Notes under the pieces: generated by a model
What the model saw: the letters and a program-made list of their open reading frames with translations, nothing else
What the model was told of the DNA's origin: nothing
The model's database searches: none
Part shown: piece by piece, positions 9,651 through 56,257 of the stretch
Layout of the letters: every line of letters begins with the position of its first letter
Position numbering within the stretch: position 1 is the stretch's first letter
Position numbers and translations under genes: made by a program
DNA from: Candidatus Krumholzibacteriia bacterium
GTDB taxonomy: Bacteria > Krumholzibacteriota > Krumholzibacteriia > LZORAL124-64-63
Length of the DNA: 64,000 bases
NCBI GenBank assembly: GCA_036351155.1
Contig: JAZBOO010000163.1
Location: forward strand, 4,827 to 68,826
Direction of reading: 5' to 3'

Positions 9651-9681
9651 CCAGCGATTCTACTTTGGCTCGAGGCTGAGT

Positions 9682-10804: not shown

Positions 10805-10862
10805 TCAGCCGCTTTTCGGCTTGTTTTGACGCCCCTGGCGGGGCACATCCGGAGGTTTGAAG

Positions 10863-11434: not shown

Positions 11435-12295
11435 ATGGCGAAAGTCGGATTGAAAGACCTGCTGGAAGCTGGCGTCCACTTCGGACACCAGACGCGCAAG
11501 TGGAACCCCAAGATGAAGCCGTACATCTTCATCGCCCGGGGTGGCATCTACATCATCGATCTTCAGCGGACCCTGCGGAACCTGAACAAGGCCAGCAAGT
11601 TCCTCGAGACCGTGGGCGCCAAGGGCGGCTCGGTTCTGTTCGTGGGAACCAAGAAGCAGGCCAAGGTGGCCATCAAGGAGTTCGCCGATCGCGTGGACAT
11701 GCCCTACGTGACCGAGCGCTGGCTCGGCGGTATGCTGACCAACCACCAGACCATCTACAAGAGTGTCCAGAAGCTCGAAGAGATCGAGGCCATGATGAAC
11801 GATGGCCGTATCGAGAACTTCTCCAAGAAGGAGCAGCTGGAATTCAGCCGCAAGTTCGAGAAGCTGAACACCAACCTCGGCGGCATCCGGAACATGAAGG
11901 GCCTGCCCAGCGCCGTGTTCGTCGTCGATACCGCCGAAGAGGAAACCGCCGTGCGCGAGGCCAAGAAGCTGGGCATCCCGGTCATCGGCATCGTCGACAC
12001 CAACTGCGATCCCACGCTGGTGGACTTCCCCATTCCGGGTAACGATGACGCCATTCGCGCCATCACGCTGTTCACCCGGGTTGTGGCCGAGTCCATCGAA
12101 GAGGGTCGGAAGATGCGCGGCGAGGGTGTGGACAAGGCCATGGAAAAGGGCGTGGACATGGCGGCCCCCAAGAAGGCGGCCACCGCGGCCAGCGCCACTC
12201 TCGACGGAGAGGCCAGCAAGGTGGAACCCGCTCCTGCGGCCGCCAAGGCTGCCGAGGGAAAAACTGCCGAGGGTGAGGACAAGCCTGCCAGCTGA
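11435..12295 (+). CDS. rpsB: 30S ribosomal protein S2
   Basis: MAKVGLKDLLEAGVHFGHQTRKWNPKM...; canonical S2. Confidence 0.95.
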   Translation: MAKVGLKDLLEAGVHFGHQTRKWNPKMKPYIFIARGGIYIIDLQRTLRNLNKASKFLETVGAKGGSVLFVGTKKQAKVAIKEFADRVDMPYVTERWLGGMLTNHQTIYKSVQKLEEIEAMMNDGRIENFSKKEQLEFSRKFEKLNTNLGGIRNMKGLPSAVFVVDTAEEETAVREAKKLGIPVIGIVDTNCDPTLVDFPIPGNDDAIRAITLFTRVVAESIEEGRKMRGEGVDKAMEKGVDMAAPKKAATAASATLDGEASKVEPAPAAAKAAEGKTAEGEDKPAS

Positions 12296-30615: not shown

Positions 30616-32418
30616 TTGCCATCCGCCTTGCATTCATCCTTCTTCGGAAACCTGGGCCCTCATCCCATGGCTTCCCGGCAATCCTGGCTCCCTGGATTGC
30701 GACTGCAGCGGGGTTCCGCAGGCAGAGCCCCTCAATTCCAGCAAAAACTCCAGGAATTCGTCGACAATCTCCCGGACCCGACTTTTATCATCGACACCAG
30801 AAAACGGGTGCTGGCCTGGAATGGAGCCCTGGCGGCGCTGACCGGAGTGTCCTCCTCGGAAATCCTGGGAAAGGGGCAGGGAGATCACGCCGTTCCCTTC
30901 CCCGGAGAGGCGGTCCCGGTCCTGGCGGATCATTTCGGGGATGTGGATGACGAGCACTGGCGGCAGCACTACGACCGGGTTGAAACCCGAGGAGACACCG
31001 TGTACGCCGAGGGTTTCTTTCCTTTCCTCCACGGGGGGAGAGGGGCCCACCTGAGCGTCACGGCCTCTCCCTTCCGTCGGCGTGATGGTCAGATCATCGG
31101 CGCGATCCAGACCATGAGAGACCTGACAGGCCCTCGAGATCGGGAAGGCTCTCTTCGGCAGAGGGAAGATGACCGCCGTATCCGTGACTTGAACGAGATG
31201 CTGGAACAGAGGGTCATCGAGGGCACTCACGAACTCCTGGCCATGAACAAGGCGCTTCGCCTCAGCGAAGAGCGTTTCCGTCGGATCATCGAAAGCCTGC
31301 AGGAGGGGTACATCTTCTATTCCCGGACCACCGATGGTCAATTCACCTACGTCAGTCCCTCCTATCGCAAGATCCTGGGTTTGTCAGACCTGGGCGACTT
31401 CTCTTCGCGTTTTGCCGCCTGGTTGCAACGGGGGGACAACCGGCCGGCCCGGGAGGCTGCTGAGAAAATAAACCTCGGCTACCGTCAGGACCCTGAGGAT
31501 TTCCACATTCAGTGCCGGGACGGAAAACTCAGGACCATGGAAATCCAGGAAACCCCCGTATTCCGGAAGAATGGGGCCATCTCCTCCGTGGAAGGTCTGC
31601 TGAGGGACGTCACCCAAGATCGCCACAACCAGGCGCTCATGGAGCAGACCCAGCAGCAGTTGATCCAGTCGGAAAAGCAGGCGGCGCTGGGCAGCATGGT
31701 GGCCGGGCTGTCCCACGAAATCAACACGCCCCTGGGTATTGGCGTGACCGCGGCCTCTCATCTGGTCGAGGAGATCAAGCAGTGTCTTCAGGCGTACTCC
31801 GCCCGCCAGCTGACTCAGGGACAGTTTGAAAATTACCTGTCCGAGGCCGGGGAGTCCGCCCAGCTGATCCAGGCCAACCTGAATCGCGCCACCGACCTGT
31901 TGCAGAATTTCAAGCAGGTGGCCACGGACCAGACGGCGGCCAAGGAGAGGTCCTTCAAGCTGGACGAGTACCTGGGTGACGTCGTGCAAAGCCTGAAGCC
32001 CCGGTTCAAGAACACAGGGTTCCGCATTGTTTGCCGATGCCCCGAGGATCTGGTCCTGCATTGCGATCCAGGAGCTCTTTACCAGGTCCTGTCCAATCTG
32101 GTCATGAATTCCTTGACCCATGGTTTCGAAGGGCTGCTGGTGGGGGAGATCTCCATCCGCGCCCACCGGCGGGGTCCCTTTCTGGAACTGGACTACCGGG
32201 ACAACGGAAACGGCATGAAACCCCACGAACTGCGGCGCCTCTACGAACCGTTCTTCACCACCAAGAGGGGCCGGGGTGGGACGGGGCTCGGCATGCATAT
32301 CGTGTACAACAACGTCACCAAGACGCTGGGCGGAAACATCAAGTCCACCAGCAAGCCAGGCAGGGGAACCCGCATCACCATCACACTGCCGCTGACCGGA
32401 GAGGCTGACCATGTCTGA
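30616..32418 (+). CDS. Sensor histidine kinase, PAS-PAS-HisKA-HATPase_c, apparently soluble
   Basis: PAS blocks (FIIDTRKRVLAWNGA; IIESLQEGYIFYSRTTDGQFTYVSPS), H-box SHEINTPLG, N/G boxes (NLVMNSLTHG; GRGGTGLGMHIV). Start uncertain (30616 or ATG 30667). Confidence 0.85.
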   Translation: MPSALHSSFFGNLGPHPMASRQSWLPGLRLQRGSAGRAPQFQQKLQEFVDNLPDPTFIIDTRKRVLAWNGALAALTGVSSSEILGKGQGDHAVPFPGEAVPVLADHFGDVDDEHWRQHYDRVETRGDTVYAEGFFPFLHGGRGAHLSVTASPFRRRDGQIIGAIQTMRDLTGPRDREGSLRQREDDRRIRDLNEMLEQRVIEGTHELLAMNKALRLSEERFRRIIESLQEGYIFYSRTTDGQFTYVSPSYRKILGLSDLGDFSSRFAAWLQRGDNRPAREAAEKINLGYRQDPEDFHIQCRDGKLRTMEIQETPVFRKNGAISSVEGLLRDVTQDRHNQALMEQTQQQLIQSEKQAALGSMVAGLSHEINTPLGIGVTAASHLVEEIKQCLQAYSARQLTQGQFENYLSEAGESAQLIQANLNRATDLLQNFKQVATDQTAAKERSFKLDEYLGDVVQSLKPRFKNTGFRIVCRCPEDLVLHCDPGALYQVLSNLVMNSLTHGFEGLLVGEISIRAHRRGPFLELDYRDNGNGMKPHELRRLYEPFFTTKRGRGGTGLGMHIVYNNVTKTLGGNIKSTSKPGRGTRITITLPLTGEADHV

Positions 32419-34072
32419 TCGCGAACGCCCCGGGGGGGATGAAGACAAGATGCTGGTTTTCGCGGCCGAGGAACAAGGCGGCTTGGAGTCGCCGGAGTTT
32501 GACCTGGCCGCAGCATCTCCATATTCCCTGTTGATCGTCGATGATGAGCAGGAAGTCCACACCATGACGCGTCTGGTCCTGAAAAACTATCAGTTTGAAG
32601 GGCGCGGACTGCACCTGCTGAGCGCCTACAGCGGGGTGGGGGCTCGGCAGGTTTTGCGGGATCATCCCGGGGTGGCGGTCATTTTGCTCGATGTGGTGAT
32701 GGAGCGCGAAGACTCGGGTCTGAAGCTGGTGCGGTACATTCGCGAGGAGCTGGGCAACCACATGGTCCGGATCATCCTGCGCACGGGGCAGCCGGGGCAG
32801 GCCCCGGAAATGGAGGTTGTGGCCCAGTACGACATCAATGACTACAAGGCCAAGACCGAGCTGACAGCTCAGAAGCTGTTCACCACCGTCACCAGTGCGC
32901 TCCGGTCCTGGCGGGATTTGCAGACCATTGCGCGGAGTCGGCGGGGGCTGCGCCGGGTCATCGACGCCAGCGGGCCTCTGTTTGCCGGCCACGCATCACC
33001 GCCCTTTTGCCAGGGTGTTCTGGACAACTTGCTGAACCTGGCCGGCCCGGAAGATATCCCCGGATCCCTCGATTCTTCGCACCGGGCAATGTCTGGTCTC
33101 GTGGCTCTGGGCATGGGGGACGAGCTGGTCATTCAGGCGGGCCGTGGGCAGTACGCGGGCTACGAGGGGCGTCTGGTCGATACCGTTGTCCGGGACACCG
33201 CCGGTCACATGGTATCCCGTGCCGGGCGCATGGGGTGCGAATTCTTTTTCAACAACAGCTTCGTATCCTGCATCAAGGGCGATGAGGGGAAGCGTATCCT
33301 CTTCCTGGTCCGAGGTGAAAAATATGGCATCAGTCTGGACAAGGACTTGATCCGCATCTACATGGCCAAGGTGGCGCTGGCTTTCCACAACATGAACCTC
33401 AATCAGGAAATGATCGAAACCCAGAAGGAGATTATTCACACCCTGGGTGAGGTGGTGGAAACCCGCAGCAAGGAAACCGCCAACCACGTGCTGCGGGTGG
33501 GTATGATGGCTCAGTTGCTGGCGGCCAAGGCGGGGCTGAGCGATGAGGATGTCCAGACCATCCGGGTGGCGGCGCCCATGCACGATGTGGGCAAGGTGGG
33601 CATTCCCGACGCCATCCTGAACAAGCCGGGAAAGCTGACCGCCGAGGAGTACGAGGTCATCAAGACCCACGCCATCATCGGGCACGAAATCCTGGCCAAG
33701 AGCAGTCGGCGCATCATCAAGGCGGCGGCGGTGGTGGCCCATCAGCACCACGAGCACTGGAACGGCGAGGGATACCCGCAGGGATTGCAGAGAAAAGCCA
33801 TCCACGTCTTTGGTCGGATCACGGCCATCGTGGATGTCTTCGATGCGGTGATCAACAAGCGCTGCTATCGGGAGCCCAAGGAACTGGCCGAGGTGGTGAA
33901 GATACTGCGAACGGGGCGAGACACACATTTCGATCCGGAACTGGTGGACATTTTTCTCGCTCATCTGACCGAATTCTTGAGTATTGTCCAGGCCTACCCC
34001 GATCATCCGCCTCGTCGAGGCCTCCAGCAACAAGCCCAGGCTTGCGGTGGGACCGGTTTGCAGCGAGAATGA
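32411..34072 (+). CDS. Response regulator with receiver and HD-GYP domains (c-di-GMP phosphodiesterase, RpfG-like)
   Basis: Receiver SLLIVDDEQEV...VILLDVVME. HD-GYP: HVLRVGMMAQLLA, APMHDVGKVGIPD, HHEHWNGEGYP. Overlaps the kinase stop. Confidence 0.88.
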   Translation: MSDRERPGGDEDKMLVFAAEEQGGLESPEFDLAAASPYSLLIVDDEQEVHTMTRLVLKNYQFEGRGLHLLSAYSGVGARQVLRDHPGVAVILLDVVMEREDSGLKLVRYIREELGNHMVRIILRTGQPGQAPEMEVVAQYDINDYKAKTELTAQKLFTTVTSALRSWRDLQTIARSRRGLRRVIDASGPLFAGHASPPFCQGVLDNLLNLAGPEDIPGSLDSSHRAMSGLVALGMGDELVIQAGRGQYAGYEGRLVDTVVRDTAGHMVSRAGRMGCEFFFNNSFVSCIKGDEGKRILFLVRGEKYGISLDKDLIRIYMAKVALAFHNMNLNQEMIETQKEIIHTLGEVVETRSKETANHVLRVGMMAQLLAAKAGLSDEDVQTIRVAAPMHDVGKVGIPDAILNKPGKLTAEEYEVIKTHAIIGHEILAKSSRRIIKAAAVVAHQHHEHWNGEGYPQGLQRKAIHVFGRITAIVDVFDAVINKRCYREPKELAEVVKILRTGRDTHFDPELVDIFLAHLTEFLSIVQAYPDHPPRRGLQQQAQACGGTGLQRE

Positions 34073-35979: not shown

Positions 35980-37845
35980 TCAGACGCGCCTGTTCTTGGT
36001 CAACAGGGACACCACCACCAGCGTCAGAAAACTCAGCGGGATGGAAATGATCCCCGGCTGCCCCAGGGGATGCCAGGCCTCGGCCGCCGTCTTGCCATAC
36101 GGGCCGGCAAACATGGCCGGGCCGGTCAGGATGATGCCCAGCGCCGCCACGATACCCACGAAAATGGAGGCCGTGATGCCGGCGGCCGTGGTCCGGGGCC
36201 AGAACAGCATCATGACGATGGCCGGCAGGTTGGCCGAAGCCGCCACCGCGAAAGCCCAGCCCACCAGGAAGCTCACGTTCACGCCCTTGAACACGATGCC
36301 CAGGATGATGGCAATGATGCCGACCACAAAGGCGGCCACCTTGCCGGCCTTGACCTTCTGCTGTTCGCTCAGGTCCATGCCGCCGTAGCGGTCCATGAGG
36401 TCATGGGCCACGGCTCCAGAGGCGGCGACGATCAAGCCCGCCACCGTGCCCAGCACCGTGGCGAACGCGATGGCCGAGATGATGGCAAAAAGCACACCGC
36501 CGAAGCTGAGGGCCAGCAGGGGGGCGGACATGTTGTTGTCGGCGGGATTGATGGTTCCGCTGATGCCGGCACCCAGTCCCATGAACAGGGTCAGGATGTA
36601 GAAGAACCCGATGGCGGCAATGGCCACGATGGTGCTCTTGCGCGCACAGGCCGGACTGGGCACGGTGTAGTACCGGATCAGGATGTGGGGCAGGGCGGCC
36701 GTTCCGAAGAAAAGGGCGAGCATCAGGGAGACAAAGTTCAGCTTCTCCCAGCCGGTCTTGACCTTGAACTTGACCCCGGGCTTCATCTGGTCGGTGCCGC
36801 TGACGGTCTTGGGGTAGTAGATGGAGATCTTGGCCCCTGTCTCATCCGAAACCTTGGTCTTGTGCCACTGCTCGATCCTGGTTTCCGGGTGAGTGAGGGT
36901 GGCCAGGAATCCCACCGGCCCTGTGGGTCCGGTGCCCTTGGCCGCGGCCTCCGCATCCAGGCCGCCCACGGCCTTGACCCGTCCCACGGGCTGAAGCAAT
37001 CCGTCGGATTCGCCATTGATCAGCAAGGCACTGGTCCACTGGCATTCCCACAGGCCGTCCGGTGAACTGACCCACCAGCTGATCTTGCCTTCGCGCGTGA
37101 ACTTCAGGAAGTCGCCTTCCTTCAATGCCAGAGTGTGGCCTTCGGCCAGGAGGTTGGCCTCGGTGGTTTGCCGGGGAACGAAGCGCAATTCCTGGCCCTG
37201 TGCATCATGGAGGCCGGGAGATTCGGTGCCGATTCCTCGCACCAGAACGCCGATCACCAGGATGGTCGAGAAGATCAGCAGCAGACCACCTTTGAGGAAC
37301 TGGACGTAGGTGGTGCTGGTCATGCCGGCGGTGGCCACGATGGTGATCACGATCACACCCACCAGGATGACGCCCGCCCAGTGGGGAAGCCCCAGCAGGG
37401 GCTGCACCAGTGTTCCGGCTCCGTTCATCTGGGGAATCAGGTAACAGATGCTGACCACCAGTGTGGAGATGGCCGCCGCCAGCTTGATCCCGCGGCTGTC
37501 GAACTTTGAATCCAGCGCATCGGTGAAGGTGAACTTGCCCATGCGTTTCATGGGTTCGGCCACCACGAACAGGGCCACGATCCAGCCGGCCAGATAGCCG
37601 ATGGAATAGAGGAATCCATCGTAGCCCAGGGTGGCGATCATGCCGCAGATCCCCAGGAACGAGGCGGCGCTCAAATAGTCACCGGCAAAGCTGATGCCAT
37701 TGACCGCCCAGTGGATCTGGCCACCGGCGGCGAAATAGCCGGCCGCCGATTTTGCGCGGCGGGCGAAGTAGTAACTGAGGTAAAGAACCAGGGCCACGAA
37801 GACCCCGAAAATGATGATGCTCAACGGTGTGCCCTGGAGGTTCAT
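35980..37845 (-). CDS. actP: Cation/acetate symporter ActP (sodium:solute symporter family) with an internal ~100-130-aa hydrophilic insertion
   Basis: ATG 37845 with GGAGG RBS. The N-terminus is colinear with E. coli ActP (FAGDYLSAASFLGICGMIA, GYDGFLYSIGY, ICYLIPQM). ~620 aa versus 549 aa for E. coli ActP. Confidence 0.85.
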   Translation of the reverse strand: MNLQGTPLSIIIFGVFVALVLYLSYYFARRAKSAAGYFAAGGQIHWAVNGISFAGDYLSAASFLGICGMIATLGYDGFLYSIGYLAGWIVALFVVAEPMKRMGKFTFTDALDSKFDSRGIKLAAAISTLVVSICYLIPQMNGAGTLVQPLLGLPHWAGVILVGVIVITIVATAGMTSTTYVQFLKGGLLLIFSTILVIGVLVRGIGTESPGLHDAQGQELRFVPRQTTEANLLAEGHTLALKEGDFLKFTREGKISWWVSSPDGLWECQWTSALLINGESDGLLQPVGRVKAVGGLDAEAAAKGTGPTGPVGFLATLTHPETRIEQWHKTKVSDETGAKISIYYPKTVSGTDQMKPGVKFKVKTGWEKLNFVSLMLALFFGTAALPHILIRYYTVPSPACARKSTIVAIAAIGFFYILTLFMGLGAGISGTINPADNNMSAPLLALSFGGVLFAIISAIAFATVLGTVAGLIVAASGAVAHDLMDRYGGMDLSEQQKVKAGKVAAFVVGIIAIILGIVFKGVNVSFLVGWAFAVAASANLPAIVMMLFWPRTTAAGITASIFVGIVAALGIILTGPAMFAGPYGKTAAEAWHPLGQPGIISIPLSFLTLVVVSLLTKNRRV

Positions 37846-38141
37846 GCGCTGTCCTCCCCGGGTGTCGGTTGGCCGGCCAGTTCCTTCTCCTTGGCGGTGC
37901 ACCTGTTGTTGTAGATCAGGGCCAACACCAGGGCCAGGATGATCAATCCCATGCCGTAGACCACGGCCAGATTCAGCCCGGCAAACACGATGGTTTGCAT
38001 GGCCTTTCCCTCGGTGAAGACATTGGTGAACACGAAGCCCGCATAGACCAGGCAGTAGGCCAGGAACATACGAACGCCCAGCCGGCTCTTGAACCGGCTG
38101 GCGGGATCAGGGGCGGCATTCTGGGCAGGACCGTGGTGCAT
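37842..38141 (-). CDS. yjcH: DUF485 family inner-membrane protein (YjcH-like), partner of ActP
   Basis: ATG 38141 with GGAGG RBS. ~100 aa with two TM helices. The stop overlaps the actP start. Confidence 0.75.
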   Translation of the reverse strand: MHHGPAQNAAPDPASRFKSRLGVRMFLAYCLVYAGFVFTNVFTEGKAMQTIVFAGLNLAVVYGMGLIILALVLALIYNNRCTAKEKELAGQPTPGEDSA

Positions 38142-38401
38142 CGCGTGGACCTCCAATGGATCAGAACAAACGAAGAATTGTCGCCATGCTCTGGGCTCGC
38201 CCAAGGGCGAATACCCACAGGGACGGAAGGCTATCATGTTAAAAAATGAACAACAAGGCCATAAATTGCCTTTATCATTACTGTTGCGAAATTTTGAAAT
38301 TACGATTTCGCGAAATGGGGGCCGGTTCGGACATTGATTGGCCCGGGTGAGGCTGGTACCATGTCTTCACGGCGATGGGGCCGTTCACACCCGAGGTCAC
38401 C

Positions 38402-40471
38402 ATGAAGAGAATGGCACTGCGCACCGTCCTGCCCGCCCTGCTGGCCATCCTGCTGTTTTGCGGGGTGGTTTTCTTTTACCTGCTGCCGTCGGTGGACCGG
38501 GTGGTCATGGACCAGAAGCGGCTCATGATCCGCGAACTCACCGAATCGGCCTGGAACGTCCTGGCCCGCTTCCAGGCCGAGGAAATGGCTGGCCGGCTGG
38601 ATCGGCAGAGCGCCCAGGAGGCAGCCATTGCCCAGGTGCGCAACCTCCATTACGGACAGCAGAACAAGGACTACTTTTTCATCATCGATGAGCACCCCCG
38701 GATGGTGGTCCACCCCTACCGCCCCGACCTCGAGGGGCAGGATCTGTCGGCCTTCGGCGATCCCGACGGCAAGCTGCTGTTCGTGGAAATGGCGCGCGTG
38801 GTGGAGCGGAGTCAGGCCGGGTATGTCAGCTACCGGTGGCAGTGGAAGGATGATCCCGGCCGCATCGTACCGAAGCTGTCCTATGTGAAAGGATTCGCCC
38901 CCTGGGGCTGGATCCTCGGGACCGGGGTTTACACCGAGGATGTAGATGCCGAGATTGCCCAGCTGAAGGGCAATCTGGTGACCGCCACCTGGGTGATTCT
39001 GTTTCTGGTTGCGCTCTTGATGATTCTGCTGCTGCGGACAAGCTTCCAGGCCGAGCGCGGACGGCTCAAGGTGGCGGCGGCCCTGTCGGTGTCCGAGGAG
39101 AAGTACCGCACCCTGGTGGAATCTGCCGGAGAAGCCATCGTCATGTCCATCAGCGGGCAGGGGCTTTTCGCCAACGCCAGCATGCTGAAGCTGCTGGGGT
39201 ACACCCGGGAGGAATTTGCGCGGCTGGATGTGGCCCGGATCATCCTGCCCACCCCGGAGGAAAGGCGTCAGGAACGGCGCTTCTGGCAGGATGTCACCGA
39301 TGGCCTGCAGCCGCCGACCCGCTATGAGGCCGAATTGCAGCCCAAGGAGGGGCCGGTCCTCAGAATCCTGCTGACTCTGTCCCGGATCGTGGTGCAGGGG
39401 CGGGCGGGTTTCATGGCGGTGGCAGCCCGCCTGGCGCAGCCGCGCGAGCTGGAAATTGCCGCGGCAGCGAACCTGGATGACCTGGAAGCCGCCAGCCGGC
39501 GCACCCGCGACCTGGCCGCCCTGATGATGCGCCACGGGTCGGGCGGATTACAGGTCAGCGGCCTGCTTTCCGACAGTGCAGACGAGGTGGTCCAGCGGGC
39601 GGTGGGATTCATCACCGAGAAGCTGGGGCCGCCCCCGGTGCCCTTCGACATCATGCTCATGGGCAGCCTGGGACGACGGGAGGTGACCCTGTCGGCGGAC
39701 CAGGATCACGCGATTATCTACCAGGACACTCCCGAGGACCAGGCGGAACAGGTCCAGGCCTATTTCCTGGAAGTGGGAACCATGCTGGCCGACCTTTTTG
39801 CCGCGGCCGGGTATCCCTACTGCCGCGGAAAGATCATGTCCAGTGAACCGGCGTGCTGCCAGTCACTATCCCGCTGGTGCCGGACCTTTGCCCGGTGGAT
39901 CGACACCCTGGAGCCCGACGACCTCATGCATGCGAAGATATTCTTCGATTTTCGCAGCGCGTTGCAGGAGGGTCATCTGGTGGCGCAATTGCGTGCCGAT
40001 CTTTTCCAAAGCCTCACCCGCCAGCCCCGGTTCTATCCCATGCTGGCCCACAGTATCCTGCAGTACGAGCCGCCGCTCGGGCCATTCGGGGGGTTGGTCC
40101 TTCAGGAAACGGAAGAGGCCCGGGCCGGTTTCGACATCAAGGGGGTGCTGGCTCAGCTGGTAGATGTGGCGCGACTGCGCTGTCTCCAGCACGGAGTGGC
40201 CGCGGTGGGCACTCTGGAACGCATCGAAGCACTGGCCGCGGAAGGACACCTCAAGGAGAAGACAGCTGCGGAGATGACGACGGCCTTCACGGCTCTGATG
40301 AACCTGCGCTTGAACCATCAGGCTCGGCGCCGGGCGGGACAGCTGGCGGTGGACAACACCGTGATTCCCGAGGAACTCACCCCTGACGAGGTGCAAACGC
40401 TCAAGCAGGTTCTGGGACAAATCAAGGCCTTGAAGAACAACCTGCAGCATGAGTTCGGGCCGCGCTCATGA
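38402..40471 (+). CDS. Membrane sensor protein: periplasmic single-Cache domain, TM, PAS, then C-terminal DUF294 putative nucleotidyltransferase plus DUF294_C
   Basis: TM1 LPALLAILLFCGVVFFYLL, periplasmic ~150 aa with a Cache-like core (YVSYRWQWKDD...SYVKGFAPWGWILGTGVY), TM2, PAS (YRTLVESAGEAIVMS). NTase motif FDIMLMGSLGRREVTLSADQDHAIIY (G-S-x9-D-x-D). Alternative start 38375. Confidence 0.8.
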   Translation: MKRMALRTVLPALLAILLFCGVVFFYLLPSVDRVVMDQKRLMIRELTESAWNVLARFQAEEMAGRLDRQSAQEAAIAQVRNLHYGQQNKDYFFIIDEHPRMVVHPYRPDLEGQDLSAFGDPDGKLLFVEMARVVERSQAGYVSYRWQWKDDPGRIVPKLSYVKGFAPWGWILGTGVYTEDVDAEIAQLKGNLVTATWVILFLVALLMILLLRTSFQAERGRLKVAAALSVSEEKYRTLVESAGEAIVMSISGQGLFANASMLKLLGYTREEFARLDVARIILPTPEERRQERRFWQDVTDGLQPPTRYEAELQPKEGPVLRILLTLSRIVVQGRAGFMAVAARLAQPRELEIAAAANLDDLEAASRRTRDLAALMMRHGSGGLQVSGLLSDSADEVVQRAVGFITEKLGPPPVPFDIMLMGSLGRREVTLSADQDHAIIYQDTPEDQAEQVQAYFLEVGTMLADLFAAAGYPYCRGKIMSSEPACCQSLSRWCRTFARWIDTLEPDDLMHAKIFFDFRSALQEGHLVAQLRADLFQSLTRQPRFYPMLAHSILQYEPPLGPFGGLVLQETEEARAGFDIKGVLAQLVDVARLRCLQHGVAAVGTLERIEALAAEGHLKEKTAAEMTTAFTALMNLRLNHQARRRAGQLAVDNTVIPEELTPDEVQTLKQVLGQIKALKNNLQHEFGPRS

Positions 40472-41205
40472 AGGTCCCGGTTTCCATGCTCATCAGCGAT
40501 GTTCACACGCGTTACCAGGTGGTCAACACCCAGATCGCGCACGCTGAGCTTGAGCTGGGACACGCGCTGGAGCAGGTTTTCGTGCTGGGTGATTTCGGTT
40601 TCTTCCGGGAGCCCATGCATGACTTTTTCCGTCGGGGCCGGGGCCGGTTCACCCGGGCGGTGACCAGTATCGAGGGCAACCACGAGGATCACGGAGCGCT
40701 GCCGGGCCTGGTCCAGGACTACCAGGACGTGCTGGGTTACAGGGGGCGAGGATCGGTTCACCAGGTGAGTGGATGGGGGGCCATGTGCCTGGGTGGGGCC
40801 CGCTACATGGACGCGGCCGCCACGCCGCGCGGCTGTGAAGTCACGTCGGGGGATCTGGAGAAATGTCTGGCCGTGGACCCCGACCAGGTGGATCTGGTGT
40901 TGACCCACGACTGCCCCTGTGGCCTGGGTGTGCCCGGAGCGCCGGGTCTGGAGCATTATGGCCCACCGGGCGTGCCGGGGCTGGCTCGGCTGGCCGACCA
41001 TTTTCAGCCCCGGTACTGGTTCTTTGGTCACCATCACCGCTGGTTCGATCACCGGCAAGGGGCCACGCGTTACCTGGGCTTGCCCCAGAGCTGGCGCGGT
41101 TACCTCCTGCTGGACGGTCAGGGGCAGGTCACCCTGGTGGACCACGAGGTGAGCCTGCGTCCGGCCAGCCGCTGGGTGCGGTGGTTGCGGCCGGGCCAGT
41201 GGTGA
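40468..41205 (+). CDS. Calcineurin-like metallophosphoesterase
   Basis: ISDVH, GDFG, GNHED, FGHHH motifs. ATGA start/stop overlap with the upstream DUF294 gene. Confidence 0.85.
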   Translation: MKVPVSMLISDVHTRYQVVNTQIAHAELELGHALEQVFVLGDFGFFREPMHDFFRRGRGRFTRAVTSIEGNHEDHGALPGLVQDYQDVLGYRGRGSVHQVSGWGAMCLGGARYMDAAATPRGCEVTSGDLEKCLAVDPDQVDLVLTHDCPCGLGVPGAPGLEHYGPPGVPGLARLADHFQPRYWFFGHHHRWFDHRQGATRYLGLPQSWRGYLLLDGQGQVTLVDHEVSLRPASRWVRWLRPGQW

Positions 41206-41221: not shown

Positions 41222-42190
41222 TCACCGGGCGATGAAGGCCACCTTTTCCTGTTCTGCCGATCGGTAACAGGCATCCACCACCTGCATGGTGGCCACTCCA
41301 TCCCGGGCGGTCACCGGGCAGGGTTTTTCGGAAAGGACGGCGGCTTGCCAGTCGGCCAGAACCCGGGGCAGGGTGGGCACCCGCGCCGAGACATCAAAGC
41401 GCTCCTCATCGGCTCCCTGCCGCCACACGATGCCGCCGTTCAGGTAATCCGCCCACAGCTGTCCCTCTTCACCCACCGCTTCCAGCCAGCAGGCCCGGCT
41501 GCGGGTGTACTTGCTGACTTCCATGCTCACCCAGCAGCCGTCATCCAGGCTGGCCCGGGCCAGAAAGAAATCCTCCACCACGGGGTTCAAGATGCTTTGC
41601 TGTCGCGCAACGACTTCCCGGAATTCCCGGCCGGTCAGAAATCGCACCGTGTCGAAGATGTGAACGCCGGTCAAGAGGACCGAACCGGTGACCGTCTCGC
41701 CGGGGTTCTTTTGCCAGGCCAGCCGGGTGGGCTCCAGGCGCTGGGCCGCTCGGATGTGATGAACCTTGCCCAGCTTGGCCCATAGCTCGCGCACCCGGAC
41801 CAGGACGGGGTTCCAGCGCAGGGTCTGGGCCACCATCATCTGCCCGGCCTGGGGGTGGAGGGTCAGATCTTCAGCTTCCGCGAGAGTCCCGGTGAAGGGT
41901 TTCTCCAGGAGCAGGGGCTTGCCCGCGTTCAGCACCAGGGTGGCCAGTTCATGGTGAGAGGAGGGCGGAGTGCTGATGACGATCCCGTCCACCAATGGGT
42001 CCTGCACCAGTTCGGCGGCCGTGGCGTGGTAGCGCACGCCCAGCTCACGGGCCAGAGCCTGTCCCTTCTCGGGGCGGCGTCGCATCAGGGCGGTGGCCGT
42101 CATTCCGGGCACATCCTTCAGGGCGTGCCTCAGATAGCGGGTTCCATGGGTGCCGGCGCCCAGCACGCCGATCCGAAAGGTCATGCGCAT
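41222..42190 (-). CDS. Gfo/Idh/MocA family NAD(P)-dependent oxidoreductase
   Basis: ATG 42190 with GGAGG RBS. FRIGVLGAGTHG Rossmann motif, EKP motif. Confidence 0.85.
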   Translation of the reverse strand: MRMTFRIGVLGAGTHGTRYLRHALKDVPGMTATALMRRRPEKGQALARELGVRYHATAAELVQDPLVDGIVISTPPSSHHELATLVLNAGKPLLLEKPFTGTLAEAEDLTLHPQAGQMMVAQTLRWNPVLVRVRELWAKLGKVHHIRAAQRLEPTRLAWQKNPGETVTGSVLLTGVHIFDTVRFLTGREFREVVARQQSILNPVVEDFFLARASLDDGCWVSMEVSKYTRSRACWLEAVGEEGQLWADYLNGGIVWRQGADEERFDVSARVPTLPRVLADWQAAVLSEKPCPVTARDGVATMQVVDACYRSAEQEKVAFIAR

Positions 42191-42405
42191 TCCTCCGGAG
42201 ACAGGGTTGGTCAGAACCGCCACTTTAACATCCGGAAGCCTGAGGTTGAAAGTGTCAACCTCACGGCCTTGTTCCTCTCGGGAGTGTCCTCCGCGAGGTG
42301 CCGTGGGCGAGAAAAACTCCGCCCATTCCCTTTCATCTGCGGGTTCCGGGCTGGCATGGGTCAGGCTAGAGGAAGACCTCACCTTCCTCCCTGAATCGAG
42401 CGATC

Positions 42406-43056
42406 ATGCAAAACATGACAAGGTATCTGTTCGCCCTCTTCCTGATGTACGGTTTGTGGATGGGGCTGGCGTCCGTGGCCGGGGCCGCCGTCATTCTGAA
42501 CGAGGTTCTGGCCGACCCCATGCAGGACTGGGATGGGGACGGGGAGCTCAGCTTCAAGGGCGATGAGTGGATCGAGGTGCTGAACATCGGCCTCGTGGAC
42601 ATCGACCTGTCCAGTTACTACCTGCGCGATGTCTTCGGAACCGACCCCCACCTTCAGCTATCCGGAATGCTGGCGCCGGGCCAGACGGCCGTTTTCTACG
42701 GGTCGCAATCCATGGCCTGGCAGAGGGCCAACGGGTACTCGGATTACGGGTTTGCACTGAACAACAACGGCGAAACGGTGGAATTGTTGCGCGAGCTGGG
42801 GGAGCCGGGAGCCCTGGAGTTCGAGCTGGTCGATGCGGTGACCTTGCAGGCCCACGAAACTGAGGATGACCGCAGCAGTGGCTGGGCCATTGATGGCAGC
42901 GGGTGGACCTTGTTCGATGGACTCAACGAGTATGGGGGAACGCAGGAGCCCGGCCCCAGCGGGTGTGTGCCCACACCGGGAGAGCCCAATACCTGCGAGC
43001 CCGACCTGCCCGTGGCCCATGAATCGCTCGGGAGCCTCAAATCCCTCTATCGATGA
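42406..43056 (+). CDS. Small secreted lamin-tail-domain (LTD) protein
   Basis: Signal peptide. AVILNEVLADP...EWIEVLNIG...DLSSYYLRD...LAPGQTAVFYG...NNGETVELL matches the LTD consensus. C-terminus ...LGSLKSLYR. Confidence 0.75.
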   Translation: MQNMTRYLFALFLMYGLWMGLASVAGAAVILNEVLADPMQDWDGDGELSFKGDEWIEVLNIGLVDIDLSSYYLRDVFGTDPHLQLSGMLAPGQTAVFYGSQSMAWQRANGYSDYGFALNNNGETVELLRELGEPGALEFELVDAVTLQAHETEDDRSSGWAIDGSGWTLFDGLNEYGGTQEPGPSGCVPTPGEPNTCEPDLPVAHESLGSLKSLYR

Positions 43057-43306: not shown

Positions 43307-44446
43307 ATGCTGCTGAATGAAAATCAGAAAATGATCCGCCAGATGGCCAGGGATTTTGCCAGCTCCAGGCTGGCACCCATTGCCGCGGAAATCGACGAGT
43401 CGGCCATTTTTCCCGAGGCCACCGTCAAGGAGATGGGTGGGCTGGGCTTTCTGGGCCTGACCGTGCCGGAGCAGTACGGGGGAGTGGGCGCCGATATCAC
43501 CAGTTACGCCCTCGTGGTCGAGGAGATCAGCCGGGCCTGTGGAAGCCATGGCCTGACCGTGGCGGCCCACAACAGCCTGGGTTGCTGGCCCATCGCCGCT
43601 CTGGGCACCGAGGAACAGAAACAGAAGTTCCTGCCGCCCGCGGCCGCCGGCCAGTCCTTGCTGTCCTTCGGGTTGACCGAGGCCGAGGCCGGCAGCGATG
43701 CCGGCGGGACCCGCACCACCGCCGTCCTGGATGGGGACCACTGGGTGCTGAACGGCAGCAAGATGTGGATCACCAACAGCCACTACGCCGGGGCCCTGAT
43801 CATCACGGCCAAGACCGACCTGGCGGCCGAGGGCAGCCGTGGCATCAGCGCCTTCATCGTGCCCACCGACACGCCGGGATTCACGGTGGAAAAAAAGGAA
43901 GACAAGCTGGGCATGCGCGCCAGTGACACCGCCCCCTTGACCCTCGACAATGTGCGCGTGCCGGCCGAGTACCTGCTGGGTGAGCTGGGCGAGGGTTTCA
44001 AGTACTTCATGATGACCCTGGACGGCGGCCGCATCTCCATCGCCGCGGTGGCCCTGGGTCTGGCCGTGGGAGCCTATACCACCGCCCGTGATTACGCCAA
44101 GGAACGCCATCAATTCGGGCGTCCCATCGCCTCGTTCCAGGCCATCGAGTTCATGCTGGCCGACATGGCCACTCAGATCGAGGCCTCCCGCCAGCTGACC
44201 TACGAGGCCTGCCGCCTCAAGGATGCCGGCGAAGAGTACAGCCAGATGGCGGCCATGGCCAAGTTGCACGCCAGCGAAACGGCCATGTTCGTGACCGACC
44301 GGGCCATCCAGGTGCTGGGTGGATACGGCTACACCCGGGAGTATCCGGTCGAGCGCATGTACCGCGACGCCAAGCTGTGTACCATTGGGGAAGGGACCAG
44401 CGAAATTCAGCGCATGGTCATTGGCCGCCACGAATTGAAAGACTGA
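43307..44446 (+). CDS. Acyl-CoA dehydrogenase (short/butyryl-chain type)
   Basis: N-terminal [18 protein letters not shown]..., GSDAGG, TNS..., C-terminal [21 protein letters not shown]. Confidence 0.9.
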
Positions 44447-44485
44447 TTGAAACCACCGATCATCGTCCGCAGAAAGGAACACATC

Positions 44486-45673
44486 GTGAGCAGGAAATCC
44501 GTCATTTGCGAAGCCGTCCGGACTCCCATCGGCACTTTCCAGGGAGGACTGGCCAAGGTCCGCGCCCCCGAGCTGGGCGCCAGGTGTGTGGCCGCCGTGA
44601 TCGCCCGCAGCGGCCTCGATGTCGCGAAGGTTGATGAGGTCATCATGGGCAATGTGTGCCAGGCTGGATTGCAACAGAATCCCGCCCGTCAGGCCGCCAT
44701 CTTCGGGGGAATTCCCAGCAGCTGCAGCGCCATGACCATCAACAAGGTGTGTGGATCCGGCTTGAAGGCCGTGGCCCTGGCCGACCAGGCCATCCGCGCC
44801 GGCGACAAGGAGTGCATCATTGCCGGGGGCTTCGAGAACATGAGCCAGATTCCTTACGCCCTGCTGAAGGCCCGCGACGGTCTGCGTCTCGGGGATAGCC
44901 AGGTGACCGACCTGCTGGTGCACGATGGCCTGACCGACATCTACAACAATTTCCACATGGGCATGACCGCCGAGTGGGTGGTGGACAATCACAATGTGAG
45001 CCGCGAAGACCAGGATGCCTACGCGGCCCGCAGCCATCAGCGCGCCTGTGCGGCCTGGGACGCCGGAAAATTCGATGCCGAGGTGATTCCCGTGGAAGTG
45101 CCTCAGCGCAAGGGCGATCCGGTGGTCGTGGCCCGCGATGAAGGCCCTCGCCCAGGCACCACCGCCGAGGGTCTGGCCAAGCTTCGCCCGGCTTTCAAGC
45201 GTGATGGGGGAACGGTGACCGCGGGCAACTCCTCGAGTATCAACGACGGCGCCGCGGCCCTGCTGATCTGCAGCGAAGAGTTTGCCCGGGCCAACGGCCT
45301 GAAAATCAGGGCCACCATCGAGGCGGCCGCCACCGGTGCCGTGGAGCCTCATGAGGTCATGATGGCCCCGGTCACCAGCATCAAGAACCTGCTGGCCAAG
45401 ACGGGCAAGTCCGTCAGCGACTACGGCCTGTTCGAATTGAACGAGGCTTTTGCCGCCCAGAGCGTGGGCGTGGTCCGGGCCCTGGAGCTGGACGAGGACA
45501 AGGTGAACGTCAACGGCGGCGGAGTCAGCCTGGGGCATCCCATCGGTTGCTCGGGAGCGCGCATCCTGGTCACGCTGTTGCACGCCATGGAAGATCGCGG
45601 CGTATCCGAGGGCATTGCCAGCTTGTGCCTGGGCGGCGGCGACGCCGTCAGCATGGCCATCTCACGTCCCTAG
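44486..45673 (+). CDS. Acetyl-CoA C-acetyltransferase (thiolase II)
   Basis: GTG 44486 after [30 protein letters not shown] (active Cys), [17 protein letters not shown]. Confidence 0.9.
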
Positions 45674-45696
45674 TCTCCGGCTGGAAAGGAAGAAAC

Positions 45697-46539
45697 ATGA
45701 AAGTCTCAGTGATCGGCGGAGGAACCATGGGCAACGGCATTGCCCAGGTCTTTGCCCAGTTCGGCAACGATGTCCACTTGATCGACGTGCAGCAGGAGTA
45801 CCTGGATCGGGCCATGGCGACCATCGAGAAGAATCTCGGGCGCATGGTCAGCAAGGAAAAAATCACCGCCGACGAGGCCAAGGCCACCCTGGGGCGGCTG
45901 ACCCCGGCCACCGAGCTGAAGGCCGCGGCCGACAGCGATCTGGTGGTGGAGGCGGTGTTCGAGAACTTCGCGGTGAAGAAGGAAATCTTCACCCAGCTGG
46001 ATGCGCTGTGCGGACCCGAGACCATCCTGGCCAGCAACACCAGCAGCATCAGCCTGACCAAGATTGCCGGGACCACCGGCCGGGCTGATAAGGTCATCGG
46101 GATGCACTTCATGAATCCCGTGCCCATCATGAAGCTGGTCGAGGTCATCTGCGGCCAGGCCACCAGCCAGGAGACCCTGGACAAGGTGACCCGGTGGTCC
46201 ACGGACCTGGGCAAGGTGCCCGTCACGGTGCAGGACTACCCCGGCTTCATCAGCAACCGGGTGCTCATGCCCATGATCAACGAAGCGGTGTACTGCCTCA
46301 TGGAAGGTGTGGCCGACAAGGAGGCCATCGACACCGTCATGAAGCTGGGCATGGCCCATCCCATGGGGCCGCTGACCCTGGCTGATTTCATCGGGCTGGA
46401 CATCTGCCTGGACATCATGGAAGTGCTGTACGAGGGCTTCGGCGACAGCAAGTACCGTCCTTGCCCGTTGCTGCGCCGCATGGTCGACGCCGGCTTCCTG
46501 GGGCGCAAGAGCGGCAAGGGTTTTTACGACTACGCCTAA
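45697..46539 (+). CDS. hbd: 3-hydroxybutyryl-CoA dehydrogenase
   Basis: [41 protein letters not shown]. Confidence 0.9.
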
Positions 46540-46557
46540 CCTGATCGATGCAAGGAG

Positions 46558-47706
46558 ATGAACGTGCAGTTTGAATTTTCCGAACAACAGCGGATGATCA
46601 AGGAGGCGGCCGCCGGCTTTGCTGCCCGTGAAGTGGCCCCCATCGCGGCTCAGATCGACCAGGAAGAGCGCTTCCCGGCCGACGTGGTCAAGAAGATGGG
46701 GGAGCTGGGCTTCATGGGCATGAACGTGTCCGAGCAGTACGGCGGCGCCGGTCTGGACATGGTCTGTTATGCGGTGGCTCTGGAGGAGATCTGCAAGGCC
46801 TGCGCCTCCACCGGGGTGATCATGTCGGTGAACAACAGCCTGGTGTGCTGGCCCCTGGAGACCTACGGGAACGAGGAGCAGAAACAGAAGTGGCTGACCC
46901 CTCTGGCCCGCGGCGAAAAACTGGGGGCCTACTGCCTGAGTGAACCCGGCGCAGGAACCGACGCCGCGGCCCAGACCACCACGGCCAGGCTGGACGGCGA
47001 CCACTGGGTGATCAACGGAATGAAGAACTTCATCACCAATGGGGCCAACGCCGACATCCTGATCGTCTTTGCTCACACCAATCCGGAGCTGAAGCACAAG
47101 GGGATTCGCGCCTTCATCGTCGAGACAACAGCCGAGGGGTTCTCGGTGATCCGCAAGGAAGACAAGATGGGCATCCGGGCCTCGGACACCGCCCAGCTGG
47201 CCTTCGACAACGTGCGGGTGCCGACCGATCAGGTGCTGGGCGAAGAGGGCTCGGGGTTCAAGATTGCCATGAGCACCCTGGACGGGGGGCGCATCGGCAT
47301 CGCGGCCCAGGCTCTGGGAATTTCCGGGGCGGCCTACGAGGCGGCTCTGGCCTACAGCAAGCAGCGCGAGCAGTTCGGCAAGCCCATCTCGGCCTTCCAG
47401 GCCATCCAGTGGAAGATCGCCGACATGGCCACCCGGCTGCATGCGGCCCGTCTGCTGACCTACCGGGCGGCCTGGACGAAGGATCAGGGCTCTCGGTTCA
47501 GTGAAGAGGCGGCCATGGCCAAGCTTTTTGCCAGCGAAACCAGCCATTTCATCACCAACGAGGCGGTGCAGATCTTTGGCGGGAATGGATACAGCAAGGA
47601 ATATCCGGTGGAACGCCATTTCCGCGATGCAAAGATCACCGAGATCTACGAAGGTACCAGCGAGGCGCAGCGCATGGTAATCAGCAGCATGGAGCTGAAG
47701 AAGTGA
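46558..47706 (+). CDS. Acyl-CoA dehydrogenase
   Basis: AAGGAG RBS. Canonical ACAD N- and C-termini (FRDAKITEIYEGTSEAQRMVI). Confidence 0.9.
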   Translation: MNVQFEFSEQQRMIKEAAAGFAAREVAPIAAQIDQEERFPADVVKKMGELGFMGMNVSEQYGGAGLDMVCYAVALEEICKACASTGVIMSVNNSLVCWPLETYGNEEQKQKWLTPLARGEKLGAYCLSEPGAGTDAAAQTTTARLDGDHWVINGMKNFITNGANADILIVFAHTNPELKHKGIRAFIVETTAEGFSVIRKEDKMGIRASDTAQLAFDNVRVPTDQVLGEEGSGFKIAMSTLDGGRIGIAAQALGISGAAYEAALAYSKQREQFGKPISAFQAIQWKIADMATRLHAARLLTYRAAWTKDQGSRFSEEAAMAKLFASETSHFITNEAVQIFGGNGYSKEYPVERHFRDAKITEIYEGTSEAQRMVISSMELKK

Positions 47707-55111: not shown

Positions 55112-56257
55112 ATGAATTTCGATTTCAACGAAAACCAGAATATGTTCCGCGACATGGTCCGTGATTTTGCCCGTCAGGAAATCGCGCCCATCGCCCAGCA
55201 GATGGATGAAGAGGCGGCCATGCCCGACTCCCTGGTCGAGAAAATGGCCGCCAACGGCTTCTTCGGCTTGACCTTTCCCGAGCAATACGGCGGCCTGGGG
55301 GTGGACACGGTGACCTACGCGCTGGTGATCGAGGAACTGAGCAAGGCCTCGGCCGGAGTCAGCGTCATGTTGACGGTGCACAACAGCGTGGGCTCGTATC
55401 CGCTGGCCATGTACGGCAGCGAGGAAGCCAAGCAGGAGTTCCTGCCCCGGATGGCCGCGGGCGAGGTGGCGGCCTTCTGCATCACAGAGCCCGGTGCCGG
55501 GAGCGACGCGGCCTCCCTGTCCAGCACGGCCCGGCGGGACGGCGATCATTACGTACTCAACGGTGAGAAAATTTACGTGACCAATGGGGCGCGCGCGGCC
55601 TTCTACGTGGTCATGGCCCGCACGCCGGGAACCAGGGGGCACAAGGATATCCACGCCTTCATCGTTCCCAAGGACACGGCAGGTCTCAGCGTGGCCAAGA
55701 AGGAAGACAAGATGGGCCTGAGGGCCAGCGACACCGTGTCCATCAACCTGGACGAGGTGCGGATCCCTGCGCGCAACCTGCTGGGGCAGGAGGGCGAGGG
55801 CTTCAAGATCGCCATGAGCGCCCTGGACGGAGGGCGCATCGGCATTGCCTTCCAGGCCCTGGGCATCGGCTATGCCTGTCTGGAAGAGAGTATCAAGTAC
55901 GCCAGCGTGCGCGAACAGTTCGGCAAGCCCATCGCCAGGCAGCCGGTGATTGCCCACAAGATCGCCAACATGGGGACCGAGCTGGATGCGGCACGGCTGC
56001 TGGGGTTTCATGCCGCCTGGTTGAAGGATTCGGGCCGGCCTCACACCAAGCAGGCGGCCATGGCCAAGGTGGCGGCCACCGAGGCGGCCTGGCGGGCAGC
56101 GGACGAGGCGGTTCAGATTCACGGTGGCTACGGCTACTGCAAGGAATACGCCGTCGAGCGCTACTATCGCGATGTCAGGGTCACTCGTATCTACGAGGGG
56201 ACCAGCGAAATCCAGCGGCTGGTGATCGGACGGCAGCTGATGGATGAGTATCTCTAG
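55112..56257 (+). CDS. Acyl-CoA dehydrogenase
   Basis: MNFDFNENQNMFRDMVRDFA...[21 protein letters not shown]. Confidence 0.9.
   Translation: MNFDFNENQNMFRDMVRDFARQEIAPIAQQMDEEAAMPDSLVEKMAANGFFGLTFPEQYGGLGVDTVTYALVIEELSKASAGVSVMLTVHNSVGSYPLAMYGSEEAKQEFLPRMAAGEVAAFCITEPGAGSDAASLSSTARRDGDHYVLNGEKIYVTNGARAAFYVVMARTPGTRGHKDIHAFIVPKDTAGLSVAKKEDKMGLRASDTVSINLDEVRIPARNLLGQEGEGFKIAMSALDGGRIGIAFQALGIGYACLEESIKYASVREQFGKPIARQPVIAHKIANMGTELDAARLLGFHAAWLKDSGRPHTKQAAMAKVAATEAAWRAADEAVQIHGGYGYCKEYAVERYYRDVRVTRIYEGTSEIQRLVIGRQLMDEYL

Follow-up and report, generated by a model that had tools for sequence, protein, structure and literature searches.

A 64,000-nt stretch of a Candidatus Krumholzibacteriia bacterium genome (GenBank assembly GCA_036351155.1, contig JAZBOO010000163.1, positions 4,827 to 68,826 of the forward strand, hereafter the window) carries a compact four-gene locus, in which a membrane-anchored sensor with a nucleotidyltransferase (NTase) output and a metallophosphoesterase (MPE) are divergent from a DUF485 protein and a sodium:solute symporter (SSS). 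The locus is real, conserved and present in several phyla. We suggest, with slightly less than even confidence, that this module links the detection of short-chain monocarboxylates outside the cell to a switch based on reversible nucleotide transfer, protein nucleotidylylation, tied to monocarboxylate uptake. The value of the locus lies in the constraints that it places on the mechanism of the DUF294 switch, to which its NTase belongs. The coordinates, the four genes and all domain calls of the preliminary description were correct by Pfam and by the sequence itself. The features are as follows, and residue numbers are those of a 698-amino-acid (aa) open reading frame (ORF) unless the 689-aa protein is stated.

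35980-37845, minus strand: ActP/MctC-like SSS, 621 aa from the ATG at 37845 (Pfam SSF)
37842-38141, minus strand: DUF485 (YjcH-like) small membrane protein, 99 aa, two transmembrane segments (Pfam DUF485, transmembrane prediction)
38142-38401, no strand: divergent intergenic region, 260 bp, locally lower G+C (sequence)
38402-40471, plus strand: sensor nucleotidyltransferase, 689 aa, with first transmembrane segment, periplasmic sCache_2, second transmembrane segment, PAS, DUF294 and DUF294_C (Pfam, transmembrane prediction)
38507-38962, plus strand: periplasmic sCache_2 domain with a predicted C2/C3-monocarboxylate pocket (phmmer against PDB, pocket residues)
39098-39424, plus strand: cytoplasmic PAS domain (TIGR00229 sensory_box, Pfam PAS_9)
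39500-40456, plus strand: DUF294 and DUF294_C, the NTase module (Pfam, invariant residues, AlphaFold2 model, Foldseek)
nt 39662-39706, plus strand: NTase catalytic motif G430-S431-x10-D442-x-D444 (invariant residues)
40468-41205, plus strand: Dbr1-like MPE of the phosphodiesterase type, 245 aa, cytoplasmic (Pfam Metallophos, fold, motifs)

The third-position G+C content was 0.76-0.84 in all four genes, and we judged the genes to be real. The NTase stop codon and the MPE start codon share an ATGA (40468-40471, plus strand), and a second ATGA overlap joins the DUF485 and SSS genes on the minus strand (37842-37845). The first overlap had been taken to mean co-translation of the NTase and MPE; the overlap is genuine, but what it indicates is translational coupling. 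For the NTase, both the family consensus and a database protein of 689 aa support the start at 38402. The DUF485 ORF is open as far back as 38237, but the family favours a start at 38141, which gives the 99-aa protein.

The recurrence of this arrangement is far beyond chance. A scan with an MPE profile, using one genome per species, found 64 loci in 64 species-representative genomes, labelled Krumholzibacteriia, Latescibacterota, Victivallales/Lentisphaeria, Verrucomicrobiota, Planctomycetota, Riflebacteria/Ozemobacter, Desulfobotulus and others. The DUF294 module lay directly upstream of the MPE on the same strand in all 64 loci, and the interval from the NTase stop to the MPE start was -4 to +16 nt in 62 of 63. 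Every locus with room upstream had the Cache domain (60/60). Among the 44 loci with at least 5 kb of upstream sequence, the SSS was present in 40 and the DUF485 gene in 39. The permease pair was divergent in 23 loci, as in the window, and co-directional, in the order DUF485-SSS-NTase-MPE, in 17. The DUF294-MPE pairing, which had been noted from this one genome, is therefore found in 64 genomes of several phyla and nearly always beside a DUF485-SSS pair. A fifth conserved gene was sought as a possible target, and no other ORF family occurred in more than 9 of the 64 loci. The genes flanking the module in the window, encoding an M1 peptidase, a Gfo/Idh/MocA oxidoreductase, an HD-GYP response regulator and beta-oxidation enzymes, were not conserved at related loci. 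Overall, the four genes form a self-contained module with obligate NTase-MPE linkage and near-obligate linkage to the permease pair.

The MPE clade itself is narrow: an exhaustive profile search at E<=1e-30 gave only 26 clusters (50% identity). On metagenome contigs, MPEs at least 44% identical to that of the window all followed a DUF294 gene where upstream sequence was present, and distant outgroup MPEs (identity of 30% or less) never adjoined one. The outgroup loci were scanned with a narrower alignment (A4), as the broad one (A3) was too divergent. Two metagenome proteins, P0247 and P0255, looked like natural DUF294-MPE fusions; however, they had frame-shifted stretches and lacked the MPE motifs, and we rejected them as assembly or indel artefacts. 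In noisy assemblies, gene pairs overlapping by 4 nt easily yield false fusions of this kind.

The input of the system is a periplasmic sCache_2 domain (PF17200; 133.9 bits, E 5.8e-39 in Pfam) between transmembrane segments at residues 9-27 and 192-210 of the 689-aa protein. It is followed by a PAS domain, which scored 27.1 bits against a cutoff of 27 with Pfam PAS_9 and E 1.3e-13 with the NCBIfam model TIGR00229 sensory_box. The order transmembrane segment-sCache_2-transmembrane segment-PAS-DUF294-DUF294_C is common to more than 117 clusters. The best solved sequence relatives of the Cache domain by phmmer against the PDB were PscD-SD (5G4Y/5G4Z, E 2e-34) and Adeh_3718 (4K08, E 1e-32), and the stretches that phmmer aligned were about 45-50% identical. 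In PscD, glycolate, acetate, propionate and pyruvate are bound by Tyr90, His103, Tyr143 and Lys156; Trp92 and Trp145 sandwich the ligand, and Phe126 lies behind it (PMC5062169). The alignment placed the corresponding pocket positions at Y100, F102, H113, F136, Y153, W155 and K167. Six of the seven residues are identical to those of PscD (Y100, H113, F136, Y153, W155 and K167), and Trp92 is replaced by F102. The six identical residues were invariant in 46 homologues, while position 102 was Trp in 41 and Phe in five. The sensor regions of the NCBIfam models MctS, a monocarboxylate-transport kinase, and CtpM also match the Cache region. The PscD-type pocket thus strongly supports a C2/C3 monocarboxylate as the sensed signal, in line with the carboxylate proposed in the preliminary description. 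The known sCache_2 carboxylate sensors with the same acetate/propionate/pyruvate-type pocket (PscD, McpP and Adeh_3718), and the sensor of the kinase MctS, deliver the signal to a methyl-accepting chemotaxis signalling domain or a histidine kinase, whereas the output here is a nucleotidyltransferase.

In Riflebacteria-type and several metagenome loci (L066; L082-L086), the MPE is followed by another protein whose Cache domain is closely similar. In L066 it is a dCache-PAS-HisKA-HATPase-receiver hybrid kinase (8738-12061, minus strand), so that two carboxylate-type sensors with different outputs stand side by side.

The cytoplasmic output is, by sequence and structure model, a NTase of the Pol-beta type with intact catalytic residues and a predicted fold like that of GlnE and DrrA. 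DUF294 (PF03445) scored 123.2 bits against a cutoff of 21 (E 9.5e-36), and DUF294_C (PF10335) followed in the expected order with 118.6 bits against a cutoff of 22.5 (E 2.4e-34). The motif GSLGRREVTLSADQD, which the preliminary description quoted correctly, occupies residues 430-444 and conforms to the Pol-beta pattern G-[GS]-x(9-13)-D-x-D with a third acidic residue. G430, S431, D442, D444 and the third acidic residue, D525, were invariant in 46 homologues. The AlphaFold2 model of residues 365-698 had a pLDDT of 93.7. In a Foldseek search of the PDB with this model, the AMPylation domain of DrrA (6yx5_B; E 1e-9, TM-score 0.67) and two GlnE NTase domains (1v4a, E 1e-8; 3k7d, E 2e-6) were recovered, and no other match fell below E 0.01. 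The C-terminal module thus has an NTase fold, and among solved structures it is significantly related only to DrrA and GlnE; the analogy to GlnD and GlnE drawn in the preliminary description holds.

The resemblance extends beyond the catalytic domain. GlnE (the glutamine synthetase adenylyltransferase), GlnD (the PII uridylyltransferase/uridylyl-removing enzyme) and Legionella DrrA/SidM share with the window protein the NTase fold and the G-x11-D-x-D motif. The helical substrate-binding domain of GlnE and GlnD, of the KNTase_C/HEPN clan, has its counterpart here in DUF294_C, which shares a clan with the GlnD/GlnE substrate-binding domains (PMC3710099). DrrA works with a separate de-AMPylase, SidD, and here likewise a separate enzyme is the candidate for removal. 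In contrast, GlnD and GlnE carry HD, ACT or second NTase domains, and Pfam found no GlnD-type HD/ACT or GlnE-type tandem NTase domains in the sensor-NTase at E<0.01. None of the three enzymes has an extracytoplasmic sensor as its input. Erasers described so far have HD, NTase, PPM or Fic domains, whereas the eraser proposed here is an MPE.

The MPE passed the Pfam Metallophos threshold only just, with 23.9 bits against 21.5. However, the motifs DxH, GD, GNH[DE], H and GHxH were all present together with the alpha/beta sandwich fold, which places the protein in the superfamily. Its top matches were Dbr1, which acts on 2'-5' bonds, GpdQ and the cyclic nucleotide phosphodiesterase Rv0805. The PPP-type phosphoprotein phosphatase signature (GDxHG / GDxVDRG / GNHE) with close fold similarity was not found, nor was the Dbr1 combination of an MPE core and the Dbr1 C-terminal domain. 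NCBIfam holds no model for the MPE or for the DUF485 protein. These features, from sequence and model, assign the protein to a Dbr1-like phosphodiesterase class rather than to the protein phosphatases. The likeness is to the class and not to Dbr1 specifically, as aq_1956 scored equally to Dbr1 against the MPE. Compared with the RNA lariat debranching enzyme Dbr1, a 2'-5' phosphodiesterase, the MPE has the canonical Asp in motif I, is bacterial and is operon-linked to an NTase. Judged from its residues and distribution, the MPE is catalytically intact, dedicated and restricted to the DUF294-linked context.

The permease pair resembles ActP-YjcH of E. coli and Pseudomonas and MctC-Cg0952 of Corynebacterium, in which the gene of a two-transmembrane DUF485 protein likewise precedes and overlaps the SSS gene. 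The DUF485 protein scored 33.9 bits against a cutoff of 28 in Pfam, and the SSS matched Pfam SSF in two stretches (E 4e-65). The preliminary description had called the pair a yjcH-actP operon. The DUF485 and SSS assignments stand, but not the ActP identity, because the SSS scored below every NCBIfam equivalog cutoff: 437 against 670 for MctC, 380 against 750 for ActP (PRK09395) and 314 against 1099 for TIGR02711. By sequence, then, the permease is ActP/MctC-like, and only its membership of the SSS superfamily is firm. It also differs from ActP and MctC in an insert of about 165 aa between transmembrane segments 6 and 7 (residues ~206-372; window 36730-37230, minus strand), which was predicted to be periplasmic. 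This insert was not in the Methylocella ActP or the Ruegeria SSS, and no sequence relative was found in Pfam or the PDB. Matches of ~1,900 nt in tblastn searches suggest that the insert is kept in module-linked permeases of other phyla. It might touch the periplasmic Cache domain, giving co-sensing by transporter and sensor. In one co-directional clade (L026, L033, L052, L062 and L074), a gene of ~350 aa was observed between the SSS and Cache-NTase genes (for example, 4798-5856 in L052); it has a weak match to phosphate-selective porin O/P and may encode an outer-membrane anion porin that joined the module there.

DUF294 modules elsewhere usually have a different input and a different hydrolase. 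A tblastn search of annotated plasmids and chromids with the NTase module gave 63 records at 26-35% identity, and the canonical DUF294 and DUF294_C modules were 28-35% identical to that of the window over 84-99% of the module. The canonical proteins consist of cyclic nucleotide (cNMP)-binding, CBS, DUF294 and DUF294_C domains, as the preliminary description had supposed, and their partners are RNase_T (PF00929); both domain sets were verified. Pfam did not find the usual N-terminal cNMP-binding and CBS pair in the window protein, where the membrane-spanning sCache_2 and PAS stand in its place. We examined 11 annotated canonical contexts, and an RNase T-like exonuclease was present in ten. Their gene orders were as follows.

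Methylocella: DUF485-ActP-DUF294-exonuclease
Microvirga: acs-DUF485-ActP-DUF294-exonuclease
Paracoccus denitrificans: acs-DUF4212-SSS-DUF294-hypothetical-response regulator-exonuclease
Ruegeria, Shinella, Tateyamaria: DUF4212-SSS-DUF294-hypothetical-exonuclease
Skermanella: DUF4212-SSS-DUF294-hypothetical, exonuclease not annotated
Two Vibrio plasmids and Hymenobacter: DUF294 beside exonuclease, among polysaccharide-utilisation genes
Second Paracoccus: DUF294-response regulator-PAS protein-exonuclease

In Alphaproteobacteria, a hypothetical protein of 165-194 aa without a Pfam match is encoded at a conserved position between the DUF294 and exonuclease genes (L004, 7001-7498; L005, 6906-7490; L006, 6893-7411; L009, 6900-7430; L075, 6871-7389). 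Nothing in the window corresponds to this small protein, which might act as an adaptor or be a target. The alphaproteobacterial exonuclease is also enlarged, to 470-660 aa, by an N-terminal extension.

Operons of the exonuclease type have been studied genetically in Pseudomonas. In the literature searched, DUF294 is mentioned by name only incidentally. The P. aeruginosa genes PA3232-PA3235 are co-induced with ActP on propionate (PMC9765439), and the PAO1 homologues of pp_0353/pp_0354 adjoin actP and yjcH (PMC9927547). PP_0354/PP_0353 of P. putida and Pflu5625 of P. fluorescens are targets of CrbS/R (MxtR/ErdR), and the DUF294 NTase/exonuclease operons are among the most strongly CrbS/R-dependent genes in Pseudomonas. 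Their role has been described as unclear, with protein nucleotidylylation suggested. In P. putida, loss of the exonuclease PP_0353 impaired growth on pyruvate, as did loss of actP-I or yjcH, whereas loss of the NTase PP_0354 did not. On propionate, mutants of both PP_0353 and PP_0354 were affected, but not those of actP and yjcH. The authors of that work speculated on mRNA degradation and also suggested protein modification. Two earlier statements about the window locus need correction. One was that no characterised system with this architecture was known; a DUF294 gene beside DUF485-ActP or DUF4212-SSS with a downstream hydrolase is widespread and has been studied in Pseudomonas. The other, that the NTase replaces CrbS/R control, is unsupported: in pseudomonads CrbS/R acts on the DUF294/exonuclease operon, so that both layers are present together, and an NTase has no DNA-binding output.

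Set against these CrbS/R-regulon operons (PP_0354/PP_0353, PA3233/PA3232 and Pflu5625) and the loci of the same layout in Methylocella, Microvirga, Paracoccus, Ruegeria, Shinella, Tateyamaria and Vibrio, the window locus has in common DUF294 with DUF294_C, a hydrolase gene directly downstream and an adjoining pair of a small transmembrane protein and an SSS, in the order seen in the 17 co-directional MPE loci. The differences lie in the input (membrane-anchored periplasmic sCache_2 and PAS here, cytoplasmic cNMP-binding and CBS there), in the hydrolase (a Dbr1-like MPE, whose fold is unrelated to the DEDDh exonuclease) and in the range, which covers Krumholzibacteriota, the PVC group, Riflebacteria-type and other genomes here, and Proteobacteria and Bacteroidota for the exonuclease type. 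A rough neighbour-joining tree, which carried no support values, grouped all MPE-linked NTases into a single clade within the exonuclease-linked ones, and a CBS domain persists in some MPE-linked relatives (P0120). Because of this nesting, the window locus appears to be a derived form, in which the cNMP/CBS inputs were swapped for the membrane-spanning Cache-PAS input and the DEDDh exonuclease gave way to a phosphodiesterase unrelated to it. What is new here is the Cache input and the presence of an MPE where an RNase T-like exonuclease would otherwise stand; the DUF294/hydrolase/permease layout itself was known.

We propose that binding of a carboxylate to the Cache domain, passed on through the second transmembrane segment and the PAS domain, would alter the activity of the NTase. 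The NTase would then place a nucleoside monophosphate (NMP) on a hydroxyl of a protein target. The most economical candidates for this target would be the SSS permease, its DUF485 partner or a carboxylate-assimilation enzyme encoded elsewhere. The MPE would hydrolyse the phosphodiester, release 5'-NMP and reset the target. An RNase T-like exonuclease and a Dbr1-like MPE could both catalyse R-O-P(O2)-O-5'-nucleoside -> R-OH + 5'-NMP, a shared chemistry that, by analogy, fits an eraser role for both. This is the reaction needed to strip AMP or UMP from Tyr, Ser or Thr, which argues against roles that need a processive nuclease. The pyruvate phenotypes of P. putida are those to be predicted for an NTase whose product is inhibitory and a hydrolase that clears this product, and they tie the pair to the permease. 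The propionate phenotypes, in which actP and yjcH play no part, imply at least one further target besides the permease. The writer/eraser idea of the preliminary description is the best available reading of the locus, with the cycle and the permease target both as hypotheses. In its most specific form, external acetate, propionate or pyruvate would gate nucleotidylylation of the SSS permease or the DUF485 subunit, and the mark would be removed by the MPE, as by the exonuclease in Proteobacteria; we regard this version as doubtful.

Several points weigh against nucleotidylylation of a protein. To our knowledge, no DUF294 protein has a known nucleotidylylated target, and we know of no protein de-AMPylase or de-UMPylase in the RNase T or Dbr1-like MPE families, which normally act on nucleic acids. 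The likeness to the DrrA and GlnE folds is moderate (TM-score 0.6-0.67, 11-16% identity). The propionate effects in P. putida mean that the permease cannot be the sole target, and some DUF294-exonuclease pairs lie among polysaccharide-utilisation genes with no SSS permease. The P. putida phenotypes would also fit the build-up of an inhibitory diffusible nucleotide equally well. On that account, the NTase would make a second messenger on sensing carboxylate, such as a linear or cyclic di- or oligonucleotide, possibly 2'-5'-linked, or a dinucleoside polyphosphate, which acts on the permease or on metabolism and is degraded by the MPE or exonuclease as a dedicated phosphodiesterase. Such a combination of sensor, synthase and phosphodiesterase follows the logic of GGDEF/EAL systems, and both hydrolase families are nucleotide or nucleic-acid phosphodiesterases, including Dbr1, GpdQ and Rv0805 among the top matches of the MPE. 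However, the NTase fold matched protein AMPylators only, with CD-NTases, OAS-like enzymes and Hailong HalB at E>0.08 and TM-score <0.3 in Foldseek. DUF294_C is the counterpart of the target-binding domain of GlnE and GlnD, and the module has no conserved gene for a receptor or effector. We consider a second messenger unlikely, and it is mainly the fold evidence and the missing receptor gene that lead us to favour protein nucleotidylylation.

The nucleic-acid specificity of the hydrolase families might also be taken to mean that RNA is the substrate. The NTase would extend one particular RNA, for instance a tRNA or the mRNA of the permease, at its 3' end with untemplated nucleotides, which would be trimmed off by the exonuclease or MPE. 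Translation or RNA stability of carboxylate-utilisation genes would be controlled in this way. RNase T and the CCA-adding enzyme form a known end-turnover cycle, Dbr1-like MPEs act on RNA, and the mRNA degradation considered for P. putida points the same way. Yet the CCA-adding enzymes, poly(A) polymerases and terminal uridylyltransferases were not significant by fold (E>0.1, TM-score ~0.2 in Foldseek), the protein has no RNA-binding domain, and an RNA enzyme would be oddly placed on a membrane-anchored sensor; RNA tailing and trimming is thus improbable. It is very improbable that the NTase modifies a small molecule, a metabolite or cofactor, in the manner of the aminoglycoside and lincosamide NTases, with the MPE recycling the product, or that the MPE is a housekeeping enzyme whose adjacency reflects co-expression only. 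The weak Foldseek matches to ANT(3'')(9), AadA and LinB (E 0.01-0.6) are in keeping with a small-molecule substrate, but their TM-score was only ~0.25. A housekeeping MPE is hard to reconcile with a clade that in all 64 genomes is confined to the position right after DUF294, where the two genes overlap by 4 nt or lie a very short gap apart.

The DUF294 NTase/exonuclease operons accompany acs and actP in many bacteria, and their mechanism is still called unclear after more than 20 years of annotation and recent knock-outs. Comparison alone adds the constraint that the switch can be driven from outside the cell, directly by the class of substrate that is transported. Since the hydrolase partner can be exchanged for a phosphodiesterase of an unrelated fold, the essential activity would be cleavage of the R-O-P-O-5'-nucleoside bond, and not processive RNA or DNA nuclease action. 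The compactness of the four-gene module, with no other conserved neighbour, narrows the candidate targets. If reversible nucleotidylylation of the permease or DUF485 protein were true, this would be the first transporter under the control of reversible AMPylation or UMPylation. Two new classes of protein de-nucleotidylylase would come to light, and the DUF294/exonuclease genes of the bacterial acetate switch would be explained.

The AT-richer intergenic region between the divergent pairs contains GCGAAAT/ATTTCGC repeats, direct and inverted, at 38286-38316 (written GCGAAAT-N12-ATTTCGCGAAAT). These first looked plausible as an operator; however, they were absent in 27 other divergent loci, and they are either a lineage-specific operator or chance. 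A sigma-70 scan of the same region gave nothing above the shuffled expectation.

Several neighbouring genes in the window lie outside the conserved module. At 30616-34072 (plus strand), 4-8 kb upstream of the module, a PAS histidine kinase gene overlaps that of a response regulator with DUF3369 and an HD-GYP-type HD domain. This pair is not of the CrbS/R type and is not conserved beside the module elsewhere. On the other side, a Gfo/Idh/MocA oxidoreductase gene (41222-42382, minus strand) lies beside the MPE, which is also flanked by a gene for a lamin-tail domain protein with a hydrophobic N-terminus, possibly a signal peptide (42406-43056, plus strand); neither is conserved next to the module in other genomes. 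Also just downstream, the regions 43307-47706 and 55112-56257 (both plus strand) encode an acyl-CoA dehydrogenase, a thiolase, a likely 3-hydroxyacyl-CoA dehydrogenase (from the translation only) and two further acyl-CoA dehydrogenases. Although outside the conserved module, these short-chain acyl-CoA genes fit a short-chain fatty-acid lifestyle.

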